Assembly (NCBI RefSeq): GCF_053078305.1
Contig: NZ_CP166879.1
DNA length: 64,000 bases
Reading direction: 5' to 3' (one strand)
In this document: in pieces, positions 9,870 to 29,688 of the stretch
Numbering within the stretch: the first letter of the stretch is position 1
Layout: every line of letters starts with the position of its first letter
Made by a program: the position numbers and the translations under genes
Notes under the pieces: model-generated
The model's input: only the letters and a program-made list of their open reading frames with translations
The model's database searches: none
What the model was told of the DNA's origin: nothing

Positions 9870-9954
9870 AGTCAGAGATAACAATCAACTAATACTGTTT
9901 TGTTGATTTTTGCTTGTAATTGGCGTTCTGGTCTGATTTTTGTGGAGTAAGTTG

Positions 9955-10338
9955 ATGCGTGATATTCAGATGGTTCTTGAGCGTTGGGGAGCGTGGGCGG
10001 CTAATAATCATGAAGATGTGACCTGGTCGTCCATTGCCGCCGGTTTTAAGGGATTAATTCCTTCAAAAGTAAAATCTCGCCCGCAATGTTGTGACGATGA
10101 CGCGATGATCATTTGCGGGTGCATGGCCCGTCTGAAAAAGAACAACAGCGATTTGCACGATTTATTAGTAGATTATTATGTAGTCGGTATGACATTCATG
10201 TCACTGGCAGGTAAGCATTGCTGCTCTGATGGTTATATCGGGAAAAGGTTACAGAAGGCTGAGGGTATAATTGAAGGGATGTTAATGGCATTAGATATCC
10301 GGTTAGAGATGGATATCGTTGTTAATAACTCTAATTAA
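9955..10338 (+). CDS. quuD: Late-gene antiterminator Q (QuuD / phage-21-type)
   Basis: [34 protein letters not shown]... matches the DLP12/21-type Q as recalled; ORF track starts 15 nt upstream. Confidence 0.8.
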
Positions 10339-10527: not shown

Positions 10528-11626
10528 TTAGAACTGGTAAACCAGACCTACAGCAACGATGTCATCAGTGCTTACACCGAGTGCTTTAGTGAAGTCATTT
10601 TTGTCAAGCAGGTTGATTTTGTAATCAACGAAAGTAGACATATTTTTGTTGAAGTAATAGGTTGCACCTACATCAACATATTTGACTAAGTCCTGATCGC
10701 CCCATACTCCAAGATCCTTACCTTTAGATTGCAGGTAAGCAACGGACGGACGCAGACCGAAATCGAACTGATATTGTGCAACAGCTTCGAAGTTTTGAGC
10801 TTTATTAGCAACGAAGTGATCAGCAAATACAGTCATATTCTGGGTTTCAGAATAGGTAGTGGCCAGGTAAATGTTGTTAGCGTCATATTTCAGACCTGCG
10901 GCCCAAACTTCTGCATTTTTACCGGAAGCAAATACTTCAGGAAGAACTTTCCCTGCATTAACTTGAGTGTCGGTACGATCAGATTTCGCATAAGTTGCAC
11001 CGATACCGAATCCTTCGTATTCATAGGTAGCAGAGAAACCGAAGCCATCACCGTTACCTTCGGTGTAGTTATCGAAATCGCTACGATCGTTTTTGCCTTG
11101 GTACTGAGCAGCAAAGTTCAGACCATCAACCAGACCAAAGAAGTCGTTGTTACGATAGGTTGCAACACCAGTGGTACGACCAGTCATGAACACATCTGTT
11201 TGGGTCCAGGGTATCGCCACCGAATTCTGGCAGAACGTCAGTCCACGCACCGATGTCGTATGCTACACCGTAGTTACGGCCGTAATCGATTGAGCCGTAG
11301 TCACCGAATTTCAGGCCTGCAAATGCAAGACGGGTTTTGTCTTTGGAGGAACCTTGAGATTCAGCGCGGTTGCCTTTGAATTCATATTCCCACTGACCGA
11401 AACCAGTCAGCTGATCGTTGATTTGGGTTTCGCCTTTGAAGCCCAGACGAACATAAGTAGTATCACCATCATCTGCATCGTTAGAGGAAAAGTAGTGCTT
11501 GGCATTAACTTTCCCGTACAGATCCAGCTTGTTACTGTCTTTATTATAAATTTCAGCTGCCTGAGCAGACATCGCCATCAGTACTGATGCAGCTACAGCA
11601 GAAATTGCCACTGTTAATTTTTTCAT
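10528..11626 (-). pseudogene. nmpC: OmpC/NmpC-family porin moron, disrupted by a frameshift near 11150-11250
   Basis: Two overlapping minus-strand ORFs (10528-11250, 11150-11626) jointly encode a porin with signal peptide and C-terminal VYQF; the 1099-nt span is 1 nt off a multiple of three; an extra C in gataccCtggaccc near 11215 is suspected. Confidence 0.7.
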
Positions 11627-14149: not shown

Positions 14150-14375
14150 GGCCAACGGGTCCTTTCCGGCGATCCGACAGGTTACGGGGCGGCGACCTCG
14201 CGGGTTTTCGCTATTTATGAAAATTTTCCGGTTTAAGGCGTTTCCGTTCTTCTTCGTCGTAACTTAATGTTTTTATTTAAAATACCCCCTGAAAAGAAAG
14301 GAAACGACAGGTGCTGAAAGCGAGCTTTTTGGCCTCTGTCGTTTCCTTTCTCTGTTTTTGTCCGTGGAATGAACA
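14150..14375 (+). promoter_or_regulatory. Helper prophage cos site (cosQ-cosN-cosB); cosN cohesive-end sequence GGGCGGCGACCT at 14187-14198
   Basis: gttacggggcggcgacctcgcgggttttcgctatttatgaaaattttccgg matches the lambda cos region as recalled and sits directly upstream of Nu1. Confidence 0.85.
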
Positions 14376-14921: not shown

Positions 14922-17850
<2,929 letters not shown>

Positions 17851-17977
17851 TTATGTCTATCATCTCCCCGTAGTTGTCCGCATCGTTCGCCAACTCCACT
17901 GAAACCCTTGCTGCGGCTGGAATGTCGTTTTCCATACTTTTGATGACCGTTCATCACACTTCCAGGTTTTCGCGGTT

Positions 17978-18031
17978 TTGTGTATTGCAATGTGTATTGC
18001 AAATTGGCGATCGGGATGGGTGTGTATTGCA
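17978..18031. repeat. Three copies of TGTGTATTGCAA upstream of the island integrase (attL-proximal, putative integrase binding sites)
   Basis: Copies at 17978-17989, 17990-18001 and 18020-18031; the same motif occurs in tandem at 29588-29610 near the other island end. Confidence 0.7.
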
Positions 18032-21238: not shown

Positions 21239-21797
21239 CTGTAATCCTCTCAATGAAAGTGTAAGACAATATACACATAAAAAGTCTTACATAAAAGCAT
21301 TGACATGTAAGCCACCTATAAATAAAGTTACTTACACCTTGTTAATGCAAGGTGCAGAAACGACGAAACCCGGCAGTGCGCTAACACTAACCGGGCTTCT
21401 AACCACCAACGATAGAAAGCGTATCGAGGTAGCTATGAGAAATCATACCACACACCCGCAAGGGCGGGACTCGCACAACCTGAATAAATACATCTGGCGT
21501 TTTCTGGCCCGAAAAAACCAGTTGATCGCCAGTGTCGAAAATAGCTATGATTCCCGCGCACCTCATAAAACGGGTGCCGGGATTGGCGTCCTGGGCAAAA
21601 CTGAAGCGCATAACACGCGCCCCGCGTGTTTTTTTGTGCCGCATAGTCACACCTTATCAATGGTGGGCTGTACGGGGGCGGAGCAATCCGCGCCGGTTTC
21701 TTCAGTGTCCGGTTACGCCAACCCTGTACAGTCCGCCACCAGCGAAATTGGCGTTTCCGGTGGCGGTTATCTTAACCACACTGAGGAGGCTGCCAAC

Positions 21798-25248: not shown

Positions 25249-25521
25249 ATGGTACATGACCGCATAGCGGAGGAACTCGAGGCAAAAGGCTTTTACCGGA
25301 GGGCGGCGGCGCGATGGGGTGAAGTTATGCAGCTGGTGGAGACAGACAAGGAACGGCATCAGGTTACGATGCGACGGCTGGAATGTTCCAGGAAGGCACA
25401 GAGGCCACCGGAGCCGCCGGATAACTTCGGAGACCTGAAAAAAGCAGTAGATCGCACTTATGCCGAAATGGGTATGGATGGTGTAAGCGATGAAATATGG
25501 CGTAATTACCCAGACAGCTAA
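25249..25521 (+). CDS. PerC-family transcriptional activator-like protein
   Basis: AEELEAKGFYRRAAARWGEVMQLVETDKERHQV resembles the PerC/Pch signature; RBS gagggg; real start internal to ORF 25129-25521. Confidence 0.5.
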   Translation: MVHDRIAEELEAKGFYRRAAARWGEVMQLVETDKERHQVTMRRLECSRKAQRPPEPPDNFGDLKKAVDRTYAEMGMDGVSDEIWRNYPDS

Positions 25522-25527
25522 TCAACA

Positions 25528-25549
25528 GCCGGAGAAATCCGGCTTTTTT
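25528..25549 (+). terminator. Intrinsic terminator (GCCGGAGAAATCCGGC + T6)
   Basis: Perfect hairpin plus T-run directly after the PerC-like gene; the identical hairpin recurs at 27802-27824. Confidence 0.7.
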
Positions 25550-25561
25550 GTACCCAAAAAA

Positions 25562-25598
25562 AGCCCGATAAGTACAGGAGGCATCTTATCGGGCTTTT
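25562..25598 (+). terminator. Second tandem intrinsic terminator
   Basis: agcccgataag...cttatcgggct hairpin followed by tttt. Confidence 0.55.
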
Positions 25599-25676
25599 GC
25601 ATATGAGGTTTTTTTGGTGCACTGACACACATGATCGGGGTAATCATTTCATAATTTGCAACACAACTCAACATCA

Positions 25677-25737
25677 TTGCACAAAATGCAATCCTGATTA
25701 TAATCAGAGCTGGATGAACATCCAGTTCTGATTTTTT
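25677..25737 (+). promoter_or_regulatory. Sigma70-like promoter followed by a hairpin and U-run, upstream of the island capsid/packaging operon
   Basis: TTGCAC (25677-25682), 16-nt spacer, TATAAT (25699-25704); hairpin ctggatg-aa-catccag (25710-25725) then ttctgatttttt. Confidence 0.5.
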
Positions 25738-25760
25738 AAGTCAAAGAGGAATTTCTTACT

Positions 25761-25967
25761 ATGGCTGAAGAGAAAAAAGGCGGTGTTTCGGTGTACATAA
25801 GCCCCGAAATCGTGGAGGTGCTCAAGCAGCGCCACAAAAAAAACTATGAGGCTGGCGTAGCGGCTGGACTGGATCCGCTGATGACGCCGGAGCCGTCGAT
25901 AGGTTCACTTGTGCGCTCTTATTTACTTGCGGCGCTTGGGATGCATAAAAATTATGGTGGTGAATAA
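25761..25967 (+). CDS. Hypothetical small protein (first gene of island morphogenetic operon)
   Basis: 68-aa ORF with RBS agagga; stop overlaps the capsid gene start. Confidence 0.4.
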   Translation: MAEEKKGGVSVYISPEIVEVLKQRHKKNYEAGVAAGLDPLMTPEPSIGSLVRSYLLAALGMHKNYGGE

Positions 25968-27022
25968 TGACAGTAAAAGCAATGGCACTTACAACTAACC
26001 AGCTTTTCGCGTACCTGAATCGCGGGGATATTGCAGAATTTAAATTCAGTCCGCTGTTTACCACGCTGTTTTTCCCGAACGTGGCGACCTTCAACACCCA
26101 GAACATCATGCTGGACACCCTGGACATTGAAGAGGTTACGATGTCAGCGTTCTGTTCGCCTATGGTGGGTAGTCAGGTCCAGCGCGATAAAGGGTACGAA
26201 ACCAGCACGATTAAACCAGGCTACATGAAACCCAAACACGAAATCGATCCAACAAAAACCATCATGCGCATGGCTGGAGAAGATCCGGCACAGCTTAACG
26301 ACCCTACCTACCGCCGTATGCGCCTGATTACTGGCAACATGCGCCGCCAGATAAACGCCATTAAAGCGCGCGTGGAATGGCTGGCGGTGAATGCGATAAC
26401 GACCGGAAAAAACATCATTGAGGGCGAAGGCATAGAACGCTATGAAATCGACTGGAAAATACCGGAAAACTGCATCATAGAGCAGGCCAAGGGTAAAAAA
26501 TGGTCCGAGCATGATAAAGATATTTACGATCCAATCTATGACATCGAACTATACGCAGATCAGGCAGGTTGCCCCGCCAACGTCATGATTATGGGCGCTG
26601 AGGTATGGCGCACGTTACGCAGCTTTAAAAAATTCCGCGAACTGTACGATCTTTCCCGTGGTTCAGAATCCGCCGCAGAACTGGCCTGTAAAAACCTGGG
26701 TGAAGTAGTGAGCTTTAAAGGCTATCTGGGCGATATTGCCCTTATCGTCTATTCCGGCAAATACACTGACAGCGACGGTACCGAAAAATATTTCCTTGAG
26801 CCTGATTTGCTGGTCCTGGGTAACACCAACAATAAAGGGCTGGTGGCCTATGGTGCGATTATGGATCAGGAAGCGGTAAGAACGGGCGCAACGCAAAACA
26901 TGTTCTACCCGAAAAACTGGATTGAAGACGGCGATCCGGCGATTGAGTACGTTCAGACGCACAGCGCACCGCAGCCGGTACCGGCAGATATTCGCAAATT
27001 TGTTACCGTCAAAATTGCTTAA
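25967..27022 (+). CDS. Major capsid protein homologue (diverged lambda gpE-like, HK97 fold)
   Basis: Collinear with the helper E at 32160-33185: FKFSPLFTTLFF / FKFDPLFLRLFF, KPGYMKPKHEIDP / TPGYVKPKHEVNP, DPTYRRMRLITGNMRRQINAI / DPAYRRRRIIMQNMRDEELAI. Confidence 0.8.
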   Translation: MTVKAMALTTNQLFAYLNRGDIAEFKFSPLFTTLFFPNVATFNTQNIMLDTLDIEEVTMSAFCSPMVGSQVQRDKGYETSTIKPGYMKPKHEIDPTKTIMRMAGEDPAQLNDPTYRRMRLITGNMRRQINAIKARVEWLAVNAITTGKNIIEGEGIERYEIDWKIPENCIIEQAKGKKWSEHDKDIYDPIYDIELYADQAGCPANVMIMGAEVWRTLRSFKKFRELYDLSRGSESAAELACKNLGEVVSFKGYLGDIALIVYSGKYTDSDGTEKYFLEPDLLVLGNTNNKGLVAYGAIMDQEAVRTGATQNMFYPKNWIEDGDPAIEYVQTHSAPQPVPADIRKFVTVKIA

Positions 27023-27033
27023 CGGGGGATTCT

Positions 27034-27369
27034 ATGGACACTCCATACATTGAGTTATTTGCAGGCAGTCAGCAGGTATCCACGACGCTGGTACATTTTG
27101 CCGCTGATGCTGGCGTTATTCAGGAATTTACCCCGCTGATGCTGGCGGACAATGGCGAGTTTAAGCCGTGGGATGGTCAGGAATCTGGCAAGGCTGTTTA
27201 TCTGACCTCGTACCCCGTGGACACGTCAAAGCAGAAATCAGCACAGTGTTACAAGACGGGGATATTTAATATCGCCGCCGTAAACTGGCCTGAGAGCGCC
27301 GACACTGACGCGAAAAAATGCGCCGCCTTTGCGGGTTCTGGCGTATCCGTTCAGCCGCTGGCGCGATAA
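27034..27369 (+). CDS. Head decoration protein homologue (diverged lambda gpD-like)
   Basis: 111 aa; TPLMLADNGEFKPWDG...AAFAGSGVSV parallels the helper D (31766-32104) [17 protein letters not shown]...[11 protein letters not shown]. Confidence 0.7.
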   Translation: MDTPYIELFAGSQQVSTTLVHFAADAGVIQEFTPLMLADNGEFKPWDGQESGKAVYLTSYPVDTSKQKSAQCYKTGIFNIAAVNWPESADTDAKKCAAFAGSGVSVQPLAR

Positions 27370-27381
27370 GCAGGGGAAACG

Positions 27382-27795
27382 ATGGCAACGAATGAAAGCA
27401 TCATGGCGCTACCGCTGGCGAGTAAATTTAAAGCAGAAGCGCGGGCAATGGCTGACAGAGGTTTATCAACCTACGAGGCCGTATATCAACTCAACAAACT
27501 GGAAGAGCAGGACAAGCCGCGCGCTGATGCGATTATGGCGCTTCATGAACATAACGACTATCAGCCGCTGTTACGTGCAATGGCAAACGTGCCATGTATT
27601 AGCGTCGATAATGCTCGTGAAATCCTGAACATGACCATAGAGCAGGAGCGCCCAAAGGTTGCGCCGGAGCTTACCGCAGCCTTTGAAAACTTTATGGACA
27701 TGCACAGCCCGAAAGCCGTATCACCCGGCATGGCATACGACGGCAGAAACCAGGGCGATGAAGGCGACGTCGATCGCATACTGAAAACCATCTGA
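27382..27795 (+). CDS. Hypothetical protein (island morphogenetic operon)
   Basis: 137-aa ORF followed by a strong terminator; no family recognised. Confidence 0.45.
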   Translation: MATNESIMALPLASKFKAEARAMADRGLSTYEAVYQLNKLEEQDKPRADAIMALHEHNDYQPLLRAMANVPCISVDNAREILNMTIEQERPKVAPELTAAFENFMDMHSPKAVSPGMAYDGRNQGDEGDVDRILKTI

Positions 27796-27801
27796 CATAA
27801 G

Positions 27802-27824
27802 GCCGGAGAAATCCGGCTTTTTTT
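27802..27824 (+). terminator. Intrinsic terminator (GCCGGAGAAATCCGGC + T7)
   Basis: Same hairpin as at 25528; ends the capsid operon just before the island cos. Confidence 0.7.
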
Positions 27825-27825
27825 A

Positions 27826-27895
27826 CGGGTCCTTTCCGGCATATGGACCCGTTACGGGGCGGCGACCTCGCGGTTTTTCGCTATTTATGAGCTTT
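27826..27895 (+). promoter_or_regulatory. Island cos site: cosN identical to the helper (GGGCGGCGACCT at 27857-27868), with a distinct downstream cosB-like region
   Basis: gggtcctttccggc...gttacggggcggcgacctcgcggtttttcgctatttatga aligns with the helper cos at 14155-14222, then diverges before terS. Confidence 0.7.
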
Positions 27896-28001
27896 TTTCG
27901 GGTGCTGGTGGTGGTTTTGTTTTTCGCTCTATCTCTATGAATAAAAAGGGAAAGATAAAACCAATACACCAACCTGAAACATTACTTAAGTGGGGATATT
28001 G

Positions 28002-28544
28002 ATGAAATCGCACCTGATGAACAAAAAAAACATGGCGCAAAGCTGCCGTGTAAGTGCGACAGCGTTCGACAAGTGGGGAGTGACTCCCGTTGAACGTAAA
28101 GGACGCGAGGCTTTTTACGATGTTGCCAGCGTGATAGACAATCGGGTAAGCAATGCAATTAACCAGGTTACAAACGACAAAGGCGAGATTGATGATGATG
28201 AACTCTTACGAGTCAGGATCAGATTACTGACCGCCCAGGCTGAGGCGCAGGAACTTAAAAACGAGCGCGATCGCGGTGACGTAATTGATACTGAGTTTTG
28301 CCTGTACGCGCTTTCAAAGCTGGCGAGTCAGATTTCTTCAATCATGGACAGTTTGCCGCTTACCATGCAAAGGCGCTTCCCGCAGATTACTCCCGCTATG
28401 CTGGATGGGCTTAAAAGGGAAGTGGTTAAAGCCTGTAATGCCAGTGCCACAGTTGCCGACAACCTCCCGAAGATACTGGCTGATTACCTGATGGAAACTA
28501 CCGGAGACGTACCGGAGAAGTTGCTACAGAAGAAAGGCGAGTAA
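28002..28544 (+). CDS. Terminase small subunit homologue (Nu1-like, divergent N-terminal DNA-binding region)
   Basis: C-terminal two-thirds collinear with Nu1 (LTAQAEAQELKNERDRGDVIDTEFCLYALSKLASQISSIMDSLPLTMQRRFPQI vs LTRAQADAQELKNARDSAEVVETAFCTFVLSRIAGEIASILDGIPLSVQRRFPEL); N-terminal ~50 aa diverged. Start 28002 chosen by RBS. Confidence 0.75.
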   Translation: MKSHLMNKKNMAQSCRVSATAFDKWGVTPVERKGREAFYDVASVIDNRVSNAINQVTNDKGEIDDDELLRVRIRLLTAQAEAQELKNERDRGDVIDTEFCLYALSKLASQISSIMDSLPLTMQRRFPQITPAMLDGLKREVVKACNASATVADNLPKILADYLMETTGDVPEKLLQKKGE

Positions 28545-28689
28545 CAGACGCGCAATTATTGAACAAAAGTAAGGCCCGACATGAAATCACCCAAAAATGC
28601 CTTTTTCATGCGTTTGTATGTCTGACCTTTTACGGTTTCGATATTATAAAAAACAAATAGTTACGCTCGAGAGGTACCGACACGCATTT

Positions 28690-28775
28690 TTCAGGAAAAT
28701 TTTCATAAACAGATAAAAACCGCGAGGTCGCCGCCCCGTAACGGGCCATAATTCCAGGAAGGACCCGACGACACC
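28690..28775 (-). promoter_or_regulatory. Second cos-like site in inverted orientation (cosN at 28725-28736, minus strand), helper-like flank
   Basis: Minus-strand read gttacggggcggcgacctcgcggtttttatctgtttatgaaaattttcc shares ttatgaaaattttcc with the helper cosB side; no terminase gene lies downstream in this orientation. Confidence 0.6.
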
Positions 28776-28800
28776 AGGCTATCAGAACGATGAGGGCACA

Positions 28801-29082
28801 ATGACAGAAGCCGAACTACTGGGATTAATCCGCTACGTTACCGGAATCAGCCAGCAGCATGACGAACAGGCCACGCAGCCGGACAGCGTGACCGCTGAAA
28901 ATTATGCGCGTGTTGTTGCTGAGGTGATGCGCCGTGATGGTATCCAGCTTAATGATGCAGATATGCGCGACATACGGATCCGCGTTCTTGAAATGCTGGC
29001 CTACCGTCGCCGCGTGCAGACGTACAGGGAAAAAGCAAAAATAACGTACCAGTGGAAGAAGCCGGAGCGATTACGGCGGTAA
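28801..29082 (+). CDS. Hypothetical protein
   Basis: 93-aa ORF near the right island end; no family recognised. Confidence 0.4.
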   Translation: MTEAELLGLIRYVTGISQQHDEQATQPDSVTAENYARVVAEVMRRDGIQLNDADMRDIRIRVLEMLAYRRRVQTYREKAKITYQWKKPERLRR

Positions 29083-29587: not shown

Positions 29588-29610
29588 GTGTATTGCAATG
29601 TGTATTGCGA
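29588..29610. repeat. Two tandem copies of (T)GTGTATTGC(A/G)A near the island right end (attR-proximal)
   Basis: gtgtattgcaatgtgtattgcga; same motif as the attL-proximal triplet at 17978-18031. Confidence 0.7.
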
Positions 29611-29688
29611 CTCCTTTAAACGATAGGTTTGAGCATTCGTAATGTACTGTTTTTAAATTTTATTTTTTCCTGTCTTTTCATAAAAGCC

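Follow-up and report, generated by a model that had tools for sequence, protein, structure and literature searches.

In four papers on phage-inducible chromosomal islands (PICIs), regulation is covered only for AlpA and its promoter (PMC6092414, PMC6739421, PMC10111431, PMC11773190), and none of them describes a switch for the late genes of Gram-negative PICIs, which encode capsid-like, decoration and TerS-like/Rpp-type proteins. The helper-embedded arrangement of such islands has been described by Tommasini et al. (PMC10111431). A well-described small repressor is CopG, whose operator is a 13-bp element spanning two TGCA motifs and which represses by blocking polymerase access (PMC3413123). 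Here we analyze a promoter module at positions 25647 to 25737 of a 64,000-nt stretch of contig NZ_CP166879.1 (assembly GCF_053078305.1), which we call the window. We read it as the insulated, autoregulated promoter module of the late zone of an EcCICFT073-type PICI, a reading to which we give even chances, with the start site, termination and protein binding predicted from the sequence. Neither this promoter nor its terminators are described in the searchable PICI papers; no paper in the searchable literature contains the exact module sequences, and a gene-name search of that literature gave no transcription start or expression data for the late operon. The module is composed of the following features.

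25527–25550, plus strand: terminator T1, a 7-bp G+C-rich stem with a GAAA loop (stem-loop 25527–25544), then T6.
25554–25598, apparently both strands: terminator T2, with 14-nt perfectly complementary arms at 25559–25572 and 25585–25598.
25647–25661, no strand assigned: distal dyad TTTCA-N5-TGCAA, a putative operator and the weaker copy, centred near -57.
25677–25691, no strand assigned: proximal dyad TTGCA-N5-TGCAA, a putative operator covering the -35 and half of the spacer.
25677–25682, plus strand: -35 hexamer TTGCAC, read from the sequence.
25699–25704, plus strand: -10 hexamer TATAAT, 16 nt from the -35.
25702–25737, plus strand: terminator T3, a 14-bp stem (25702–25715 and 25720–25733) with the loop GAAC and a T-run at 25732–25737.
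25710–25712 (about 25711), plus strand: transcription start, predicted from the sigma70 rule.
25710–25725, plus strand: apical hairpin CTGGAT-GAAC-ATCCAG, the only part of T3 expected in the promoter's own transcript, at its extreme 5' end.
25745–25750, plus strand: conserved Shine-Dalgarno sequence AGAGGA of the first gene.
25761–25967, plus strand: first gene of the operon, encoding a 68-aa protein (phrog_3255), a predicted ribbon-helix-helix dimer and candidate autoregulator.

The initial annotation described a near-consensus sigma70 promoter at this site. Hexamers, spacer and coordinates are as described, but the -35 hexamer TTGCAC matches TTGACA at only three of six positions, and a consensus scan demanding at least four of six matches per hexamer gives no promoter at 25677–25704. 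The three matches are TTG, the best-conserved positions; both hexamers together reach 9 of 12, including TTG and TAnnnT, and the spacer falls within 16–18 nt. With a rough weighted score, its position weights approximated from the classical compilations, the promoter comes 14th among some 640,000 candidate sites of the window and third on the plus strand of the island, where the two top sigma70-like sites are at 21300 and 21522. By hexamer matches alone it is not above chance, and it is convincing because it is conserved. A sigma70 start normally lies about 7 nt past the -10 hexamer, and the predicted start at about 25711 is derived from this spacing rule.

Conservation was assessed in four sets of loci, with 80 loci collected through the 68-aa gene, 102 collected through the promoter 18-mer, a third set of divergent E. 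coli and Salmonella loci and a fourth of three more distant relatives; combined, they gave 55 different sequences for the 128 nt that precede the start codon. In all 55, the -35 retains TTGC, the spacer is 16 nt long and the -10 is present, as TATAAT throughout except for TAAAAT in the L137/L189 lineage. Between the window and the lineages of Salmonella and L083, identity is 76–78% over the block from -68 to +6, against 36–46% at capsid third codon positions and 44–63% in the DNA further upstream. Hexamers and spacing are thus conserved beyond the neutral expectation given by the capsid third positions. Homology between islands starts at the terminators, regardless of which gene lies upstream. 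Conservation across islands therefore bears out that a promoter exists here, and by this comparison it is an evolutionarily real sigma70 promoter with a predicted start site. The 301 bp around the promoter are found in 901 of 5,426 complete E. coli genomes, including CFT073 and O-island 51 of O157:H7, and in two plasmids; they are missing from all 50,697 phage records searched. Neither the 68-aa alignment nor the capsid protein gave a match when contigs covering one genome per species were scanned.

The promoter is interlocked with a terminator. A hairpin (ctggatg-aa-catccag) followed by a U-rich tract had been noted after the promoter, and both are present, at 25710–25725 and in the T-rich stretch ttctgatttttt (25726–25737). 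The hairpin is only the apical part of a stem that is really 14 bp long, however, and the 5' arm of this stem lies inside the -10. T3 reads AATCAGAGCTGGAT-GAAC-ATCCAGTTCTGATT (25702–25733), followed by TTTT, and its 5' arm overlaps the last three bases (AAT) of TATAAT plus the predicted start. Its tip consists of 6 bp and a 4-nt loop, since a 2-nt loop is sterically impossible. The full T3 RNA folds at -21.9 kcal/mol (z -7.0 versus shuffles); RNA from the predicted +1 would hold just the 3' arm and a tip of 5–6 bp (-5.9 kcal/mol, z -0.7), with the U-run 6 nt away from the residual stem. With 14 bp and six consecutive T on the plus strand only, T3 has the form of an intrinsic terminator. The T-run is conserved on the plus strand, and the minus strand has none after the stem. 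Hairpins of at least 12 pairs with a T-run are found at about five loci in the 64 kb, compared to 0.4 hits in dinucleotide shuffles.

Covariation in T3 was examined in an alignment (A2) of 24 distinct ungapped variants. Standard pairs occupy 94.9% of the cells, and double, compensatory changes occur at three pairs (C-G to U-A; U-A/G-C/C-G; A-U/G-C). In 11 cells, a 5'-arm G faces U, and such G.U pairs are tolerated by plus-strand RNA but not by a symmetric DNA palindrome. The observed pairing or covariation is reached by only one of 500 shuffles, and we regard this as moderate evidence for the RNA stem and not as proof. The apical arms are unchanged in 22 of the 24 variants, the other two having one C-to-A change in the 3' arm. 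In Salmonella, T3 has kept two stems, an outer one (AATCAT/ATGATT) and the inner one, which are separated by an internal loop (-13.7 kcal/mol).

The second conserved element is a pair of dyads. The proximal dyad, with two TGCA boxes within 13 bp, is conserved in all seven divergent lineages examined, and in the same lineages the number of dyad sites with at least 8 of 10 matches in the 200 nt upstream of the gene is exactly two, against a background rate of 0.64 sites per kb. The two are separated by 30 bp in E. coli, Salmonella and L192 and by 32 bp in L189, and there is no further copy in the intergenic DNA of the island. Repeated short boxes thus overlap the candidate regulator's own promoter, the proximal one lying over the -35. 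One of these lineages is L192, which keeps the pair 30 bp apart within flanks that cannot be aligned and next to a capsid gene of another family. This contig (Logan ERR11525680; L192:710-3407) also encodes a distant 65-aa homologue of the 68-aa protein, so that the regulator-operator pair would not be restricted to islands with an E-like capsid. It is thus the 68-aa gene that the dyads accompany, rather than the capsid gene or PerC. Behind the 65-aa homologue, the L192 gene block encodes a different major head protein family and a P22-type tailspike N-terminal domain.

The open reading frame (ORF) at 25761 had been taken for the first morphogenetic gene; the ORF is there, but its 68-aa product is not recognised as morphogenetic. 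Its family is tiny (14 clusters among 1.84 billion representatives). There is no Pfam match at E ≤10, no match in a profile and sequence search of the PDB, no Foldseek match for either of two models, and a probability of 0.25% in hhalign. The sequence itself (GVSVYIS-PEIVEVLK...PSIGSLVRSYLLAAL) resembles that of ribbon-helix-helix proteins. We modeled it with AlphaFold2 as a tandem, with two copies joined by a flexible linker. Each copy has a strand at residues 9–13 and two helices, the ordered parts having a predicted local distance difference test score (pLDDT) of about 76–85. The strands of both copies are paired, and in this tandem model they can only pair with each other. The 68-aa protein may accordingly be a ribbon-helix-helix dimer and is a candidate DNA-binding protein, which probably controls the promoter of its own operon and would do so by binding the dyads.

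Two more terminators, T1 and T2, precede the module. The initial annotation saw both and proposed that they insulate the operon, and this is supported, as both are present and their architecture is conserved where the stems have been replaced. Related islands retain T1, its stem sequence being changed in L083 and L086. T2 is nearly universal in the family; L083 and L189 have another G+C-rich stem in the same layout of an A-run before and a T-run after, on account of which T2 looks bidirectional. That the architecture is kept despite replaced stems fits an insulating role. The gene for PchE, the O157 orthologue of the PerC-family protein encoded upstream, has promoters of its own that are active in uninduced cells (PMC7369912), so upstream transcription must be stopped somehow, and strong insulation against basal PerC/PchE transcription is plausible.

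Put together, these elements suggest the following mechanism. The sigma70 promoter would drive an operon of the 68-aa gene followed by the capsid-like, decoration, scaffold-like and TerS-like genes, and the three plus-strand intrinsic terminators would shield it from upstream transcription, including that of the basally expressed PerC/PchE gene. T3 appears to be built around the promoter. RNAs initiated upstream would hold the full 14-bp hairpin and U-run and terminate, whereas RNAs initiated at the promoter would hold the 3' arm and a small 5'-terminal tip only and run on into the operon. Because T3 overlaps the promoter, it would act as a stop signal for upstream transcripts and not as a start-then-stop switch. 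The two TGCA-N5-TGCA dyads are spaced by three helical turns, one covering the -35 and the other lying upstream of it, and their likeliest ligand is the ribbon-helix-helix-like product of the first gene, which would exert negative autoregulation as CopG does on its own promoter. Candidates for what switches the operon on after induction are titration of the repressor by island replication, a helper anti-repressor and, in embedded copies, Q-modified read-through.

Several observations weigh against this reading. The start site, the termination and the read-through are all steps that we infer from sequence, and with its TTG and perfect -10 the promoter may just be constitutive. Five L137-type variants and L189 keep the promoter and the T-run but have no stable hairpin (about -4 kcal/mol); T3 therefore looks either useful but dispensable or like a later addition. 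Several variants have one or two mismatches in the outer stem, and pair 15-36 is G.A in 10 of the 24 variants and C.A in one. The inner arms are near-invariant and do not covary, which would fit a protein site too, and related sequences may exceed shuffles without any structure. The left half of the distal dyad is degenerate (TTTCA) in E. coli.

A bolder version of the same reading takes the interlocked promoter and terminator with the dyads as a timing switch, in which the ribbon-helix-helix protein and the three terminators nearly silence the resting operon and a helper-derived signal relieves it. We consider it rather unlikely. If it were true, Gram-negative PICIs would have their missing late regulator in the 68-aa protein, and a terminator around a -10 would be a general device for sorting transcripts by their start point.

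Among the alternatives, the apical hairpin may act in the promoter's own transcript, either by protecting the mRNA from decay that depends on the 5' end or as a hairpin-stabilised pause. Stem-loops at the 5' terminus reportedly stabilise E. coli mRNAs, as known from the work of Belasco and colleagues on ompA. The hairpin would begin 0–2 nt from the predicted 5' end, no part of the stem is better conserved than its arms, and it lies 11–12 nt upstream of the U-run, as a pause hairpin might. Its fold is weak, as the energy and z-score from the predicted +1 show, and it is absent from the L137/L189 lineage. We think such a role unlikely; it would be compatible with the insulated, autoregulated promoter that we prefer.

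An activator could be needed instead. The initial annotation named the PerC-like protein encoded at 25249–25521, and other choices from the island are DUF4222 (RgdR) and AlpA, with the conserved upstream block as the binding site. The -35 is weak, this block is conserved, and PerC, from a family of transcriptional activators, is encoded directly upstream in the window; DUF4222, a known positive regulator of LEE1 (PMC3378721), is found in 60 of 66 islands. Yet PerC lies directly upstream in only 31 of the 66 promoter-bearing islands and anywhere in the locus in 33, being absent from the other 33, and PchE has a basal expression that decreases on SOS induction (PMC6265319, PMC7369912). A dyad over the -35 and the spacer has the geometry of a repressor site and not of an activator site, and there is no second copy of the promoter motifs near alpA or elsewhere. 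L192 has the dyads and the 65-aa gene, while no PerC, DUF4222 or AlpA homologue stood out in its 3.4-kb locus, in which no dedicated search was made for them. That PerC is required is unlikely given its patchy co-occurrence, and for activators in general we hold the case to be a poor one.

The inverted repeats could also act as DNA, with CTGGAT-N4-ATCCAG (+1 to +16) and TGATTATAATCA over the -10 serving as operators of a dimeric repressor and the hairpin being incidental. The inner arms are near-invariant without covariation while the loop varies, and the palindrome over the -10 survives in the lineage without T3, all of which a protein site would explain. DNA operators would not account for the G.U cells tolerated on the plus strand, the compensatory double changes in the outer stem or a T-run conserved on the plus strand only. 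For the -10 palindrome, as many as 41 of 500 shuffles attain the observed covariation, which thus lacks significance; TATAAT itself is part of a palindrome made by 8 of the 12 bases (ATTATAAT), and the repeat motifs have no other copy. This explanation is improbable in our view, and we keep to an RNA stem that would end upstream transcripts.

Q-dependent antitermination fares worse. The initial annotation likened the module to a lambdoid PR'-tR' arrangement coupled to helper Q. In such a satellite PR'-qut-tR', the promoter's leader would contain an early terminator, through which polymerase would read once helper Q, or an antiterminator from the island, had loaded at the promoter. A hairpin and a U-run do follow the promoter, the island lies within the helper late operon in the same orientation, and there is a conserved element between the -35 and the -10, where the binding elements of Q and of P. 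aeruginosa AlpA sit (PMC7969949, PMC9371919). The 5' arm of T3, however, lies upstream of the predicted start, so that the leader would contain only the 5–6 bp hairpin with the U-run 6 nt off. Because the promoter's own RNA would not contain the terminator, the PR'-tR' analogy loses its basis. The sole -10-like hexamer in the early transcribed region, GAACAT (25716–25721), is not conserved, as GTTCAT and GTACAT in other variants lose the key A, and no conserved pause element is left. We take the ORF at 9940–10338 (plus strand) to be the helper's Q-like gene (Q21/QuuD-like). The module has no similarity to the DNA downstream of this ORF, where PR' is expected, or to any other part of the window; this comparison was by similarity only, the Q site of this helper being unknown to the analysis. 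The module is also present in islands that are not helper-embedded, such as that of CFT073, presumably with helpers of differing Q types. The island's AlpA cannot take the place of Q, since it has 85 aa and shares only the name with the larger antiterminator AlpA of P. aeruginosa, a Q21-like fold of eight helices with residues to at least 142 (PMC9371919). We regard Q control at this promoter as very improbable. A separate proposal is that Q-modified polymerase from the helper late promoter passively reads through a whole embedded island (PMC10111431); this may occur and is unrelated to the promoter at 25677. Taken as a whole, the sequence features, the conserved promoter and the insulating terminators of the initial annotation stand with corrections, but its PR'-tR', Q and PerC interpretation and its label for the first gene are not supported.

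Hardly credible is a non-coding RNA of about 75 nt from an upstream start (e.g., a -10 at CATAAT, 25650–25655) that ends at T3, for although T3 is a good terminator only for RNAs starting upstream and the preceding 60 nt are highly conserved, such a promoter has no conserved -35, conservation is lost upstream of 25643, Rfam gives no match, and covariation is confined to T3.

Other candidates were rejected by simple comparison. An extended -10 would need its TG one base closer, and a sigma54 promoter (TGGCAC-N5-TTGCA), by inspection, has a spacing 2 nt short and lacks the GG. CTGATTATAATCAG is CTG-N8-CAG and not the CTG-N10-CAG of a LexA box, and is ATG...CAT in most relatives. Operators of the helper repressor are not found at the island promoter, as TTGCA-N5-TGCAA does not occur in the helper OR, whose repeats are of the ATTGCTAT type. 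Sharing of a motif with the CFT073 alpA promoter (ACACAAC-type repeats) was dismissed, each island having one copy only. An RNA switch of R1:R2 versus R2:R3 would set a 5-bp A/U-rich stem against 14 bp, and its covariation is not significant. A cos site is placed elsewhere by cosN 12-mers at 27857 and 28725, and a replication origin of a PICI adjoins the replication gene (PMC6092414), which is not here. As a separate observation, the U/C-rich bases that lie between the Shine-Dalgarno sequence and the AUG pair, in the minimum-energy fold of 25740–25765 (plus strand), with the GAGG of the former and part of the latter, and in the Salmonella version AGGU could pair with ACCU; this may be a weak translational occlusion of the 68-aa gene.

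The island itself extends over 17.9–29.65 kb of the window and was assigned to the EcCICFT073 type from its ORFs, its PHROG matches and its similarity to EcCICFT073. Its genes are, in order, integrase, AlpA, a Bro-type anti-repressor, the isrK and C4 RNAs, DUF4222 (RgdR), a RepA helicase and SSB, then PerC, the 68-aa gene, a lambda E-like capsid protein, a D-like decoration protein, a Nu3-like and a TerS-like protein. The genes around and behind the promoter module are as follows.

25249–25521, plus strand: PerC-family gene (phrog_994 at 1e-46, transcriptional-activator PHROGs), the last gene of the upstream replication/accessory zone.
25967–29082, plus strand: late zone, from PHROG matches and the annotation of the CFT073 and SS17 relatives.
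25967–27022, plus strand: lambda E-like capsid protein, PHROG match.
27034–27369, plus strand: D-like decoration protein, PHROG match.
27382–27795, plus strand: Nu3/scaffold-like protein of 137 aa (phrog_53, 1.5e-9).
27990–28544, plus strand: TerS-like protein, PHROG match.
28801–29082, plus strand: ORF of 93 aa.

RefSeq relatives of the first of these genes are annotated as PerC family. In O157:H7 islands, as in that of SS17 (L002:3023-3623), an insertion of about 365 bp, carrying two small annotated ORFs of 43 and 74 aa, separates the PerC gene from the promoter module, where the window has 25522–25600. The match of the 137-aa protein is confined to the C-terminal part of the head maturation protease/scaffold family (phrog_53), and from this the protein would be a Nu3-like scaffold without protease.

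The island splits the portal (B-like) gene of a lambdoid prophage into 17021–17902 and 29629–30462 and is co-oriented with it. The int-alpA, Bro, replication and late zones, all in one direction, together with the co-oriented insertion in a late gene, place it among the helper-embedded PICIs (HE-PICIs). A 21-bp direct repeat, GTGTATTGCAATGTGTATTGC, is located near both island ends (17980–18000 and 29588–29608) and is probably the ‘doubled motif’ reported for helper-embedded elements (PMC10111431). In the variable zone, Rfam matches above the gathering score identify isrK (66 bits) and C4 antisense RNA (77.6 bits) at 21558–21634 and 21656–21743 (plus strand), preceded by the sigma70-like sites at 21300 and 21522, and from its sequence the region looks like a P4/P1-type immunity RNA. 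The 12-mer GGGCGGCGACCT, which we take to be the lambda cohesive-end (cosN) 12-mer, has three exact copies in the window, at 14187–14198 (plus), 27857–27868 (plus) and 28725–28736 (minus), where 0.17 are expected by chance; the first is upstream of the helper Nu1 gene, and the other two are in the island, inverted and flanking the TerS-like gene. Between the Q-like ORF and the lysis genes of the helper there is presumably a porin-like gene (nmpC/ompD-like, apparently two ORFs; 10528–11626, minus strand), as in DLP12.

The analysis yields a defined promoter, a candidate operator pair and a candidate regulator of 68 residues, and it corrects a tempting but wrong analogy to lambda PR'-tR'. For engineered PICI delivery vehicles, an insulated late promoter would be of practical use. 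The parts are ordinary in kind, i.e., a sigma70 promoter, intrinsic terminators and a probable small autorepressor, and the module is an uncharacterised element of familiar classes, with a modest but real interest chiefly for work on phage satellites.

Among known systems, the CopG operator overlaps the -35 region of its promoter. The module shares with CopG and the Pcr promoter of pMV158 a small protein from the first gene of the operon (a predicted beta-alpha-alpha dimer here), a 13-bp operator element spanning two TGCA boxes (PMC3413123) and a similar ribbon pattern (GVSVYIS here, RLTITLS in CopG). Homology is not detectable, however, and the 68-aa protein has about 15 extra residues between its helices. 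Here there are also two operators, 30 bp apart, at the capsid/packaging operon of a phage satellite instead of a replication protein, and binding and repression are predictions from sequence and model.

Lambdoid PR'-qut-tR' and the AlpA-controlled PalpB-tB of Pseudomonas aeruginosa likewise have a conserved element between the -35 and the -10 and a hairpin with a U-run near the promoter, at the head of a late or morphogenetic operon. They differ from this locus, where there is no conserved sigma-dependent pause element and the 5' arm is upstream of the predicted start. The lambda tR' lies about 190 nt downstream of the start. In the AlpA targets, the terminator is wholly in the transcript and begins 26–54 nt after the start (PMC7969949).

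Operon I, the LexA-repressed packaging operon of the staphylococcal SaPIs (cited in PMC6739421), likewise places capsid and packaging genes of a satellite under separate control and has an operator for a repressor at its promoter. The repressor there is the host LexA, whereas the candidate here is encoded by the island, CTG-N8-CAG not being a LexA box. The transposase genes of IS10 and IS50 are reportedly guarded from outside transcription by fold-back inhibition, in work by Davis, Simons and Kleckner in 1985 and by Krebs and Reznikoff in 1986. There, as proposed here, the native start lies inside an inverted repeat, so that only transcripts from outside receive both arms and transcripts are sorted by their origin; in the insertion sequences the hairpin hides the ribosome-binding site, whereas in the island the hairpin and U-run would end transcription.

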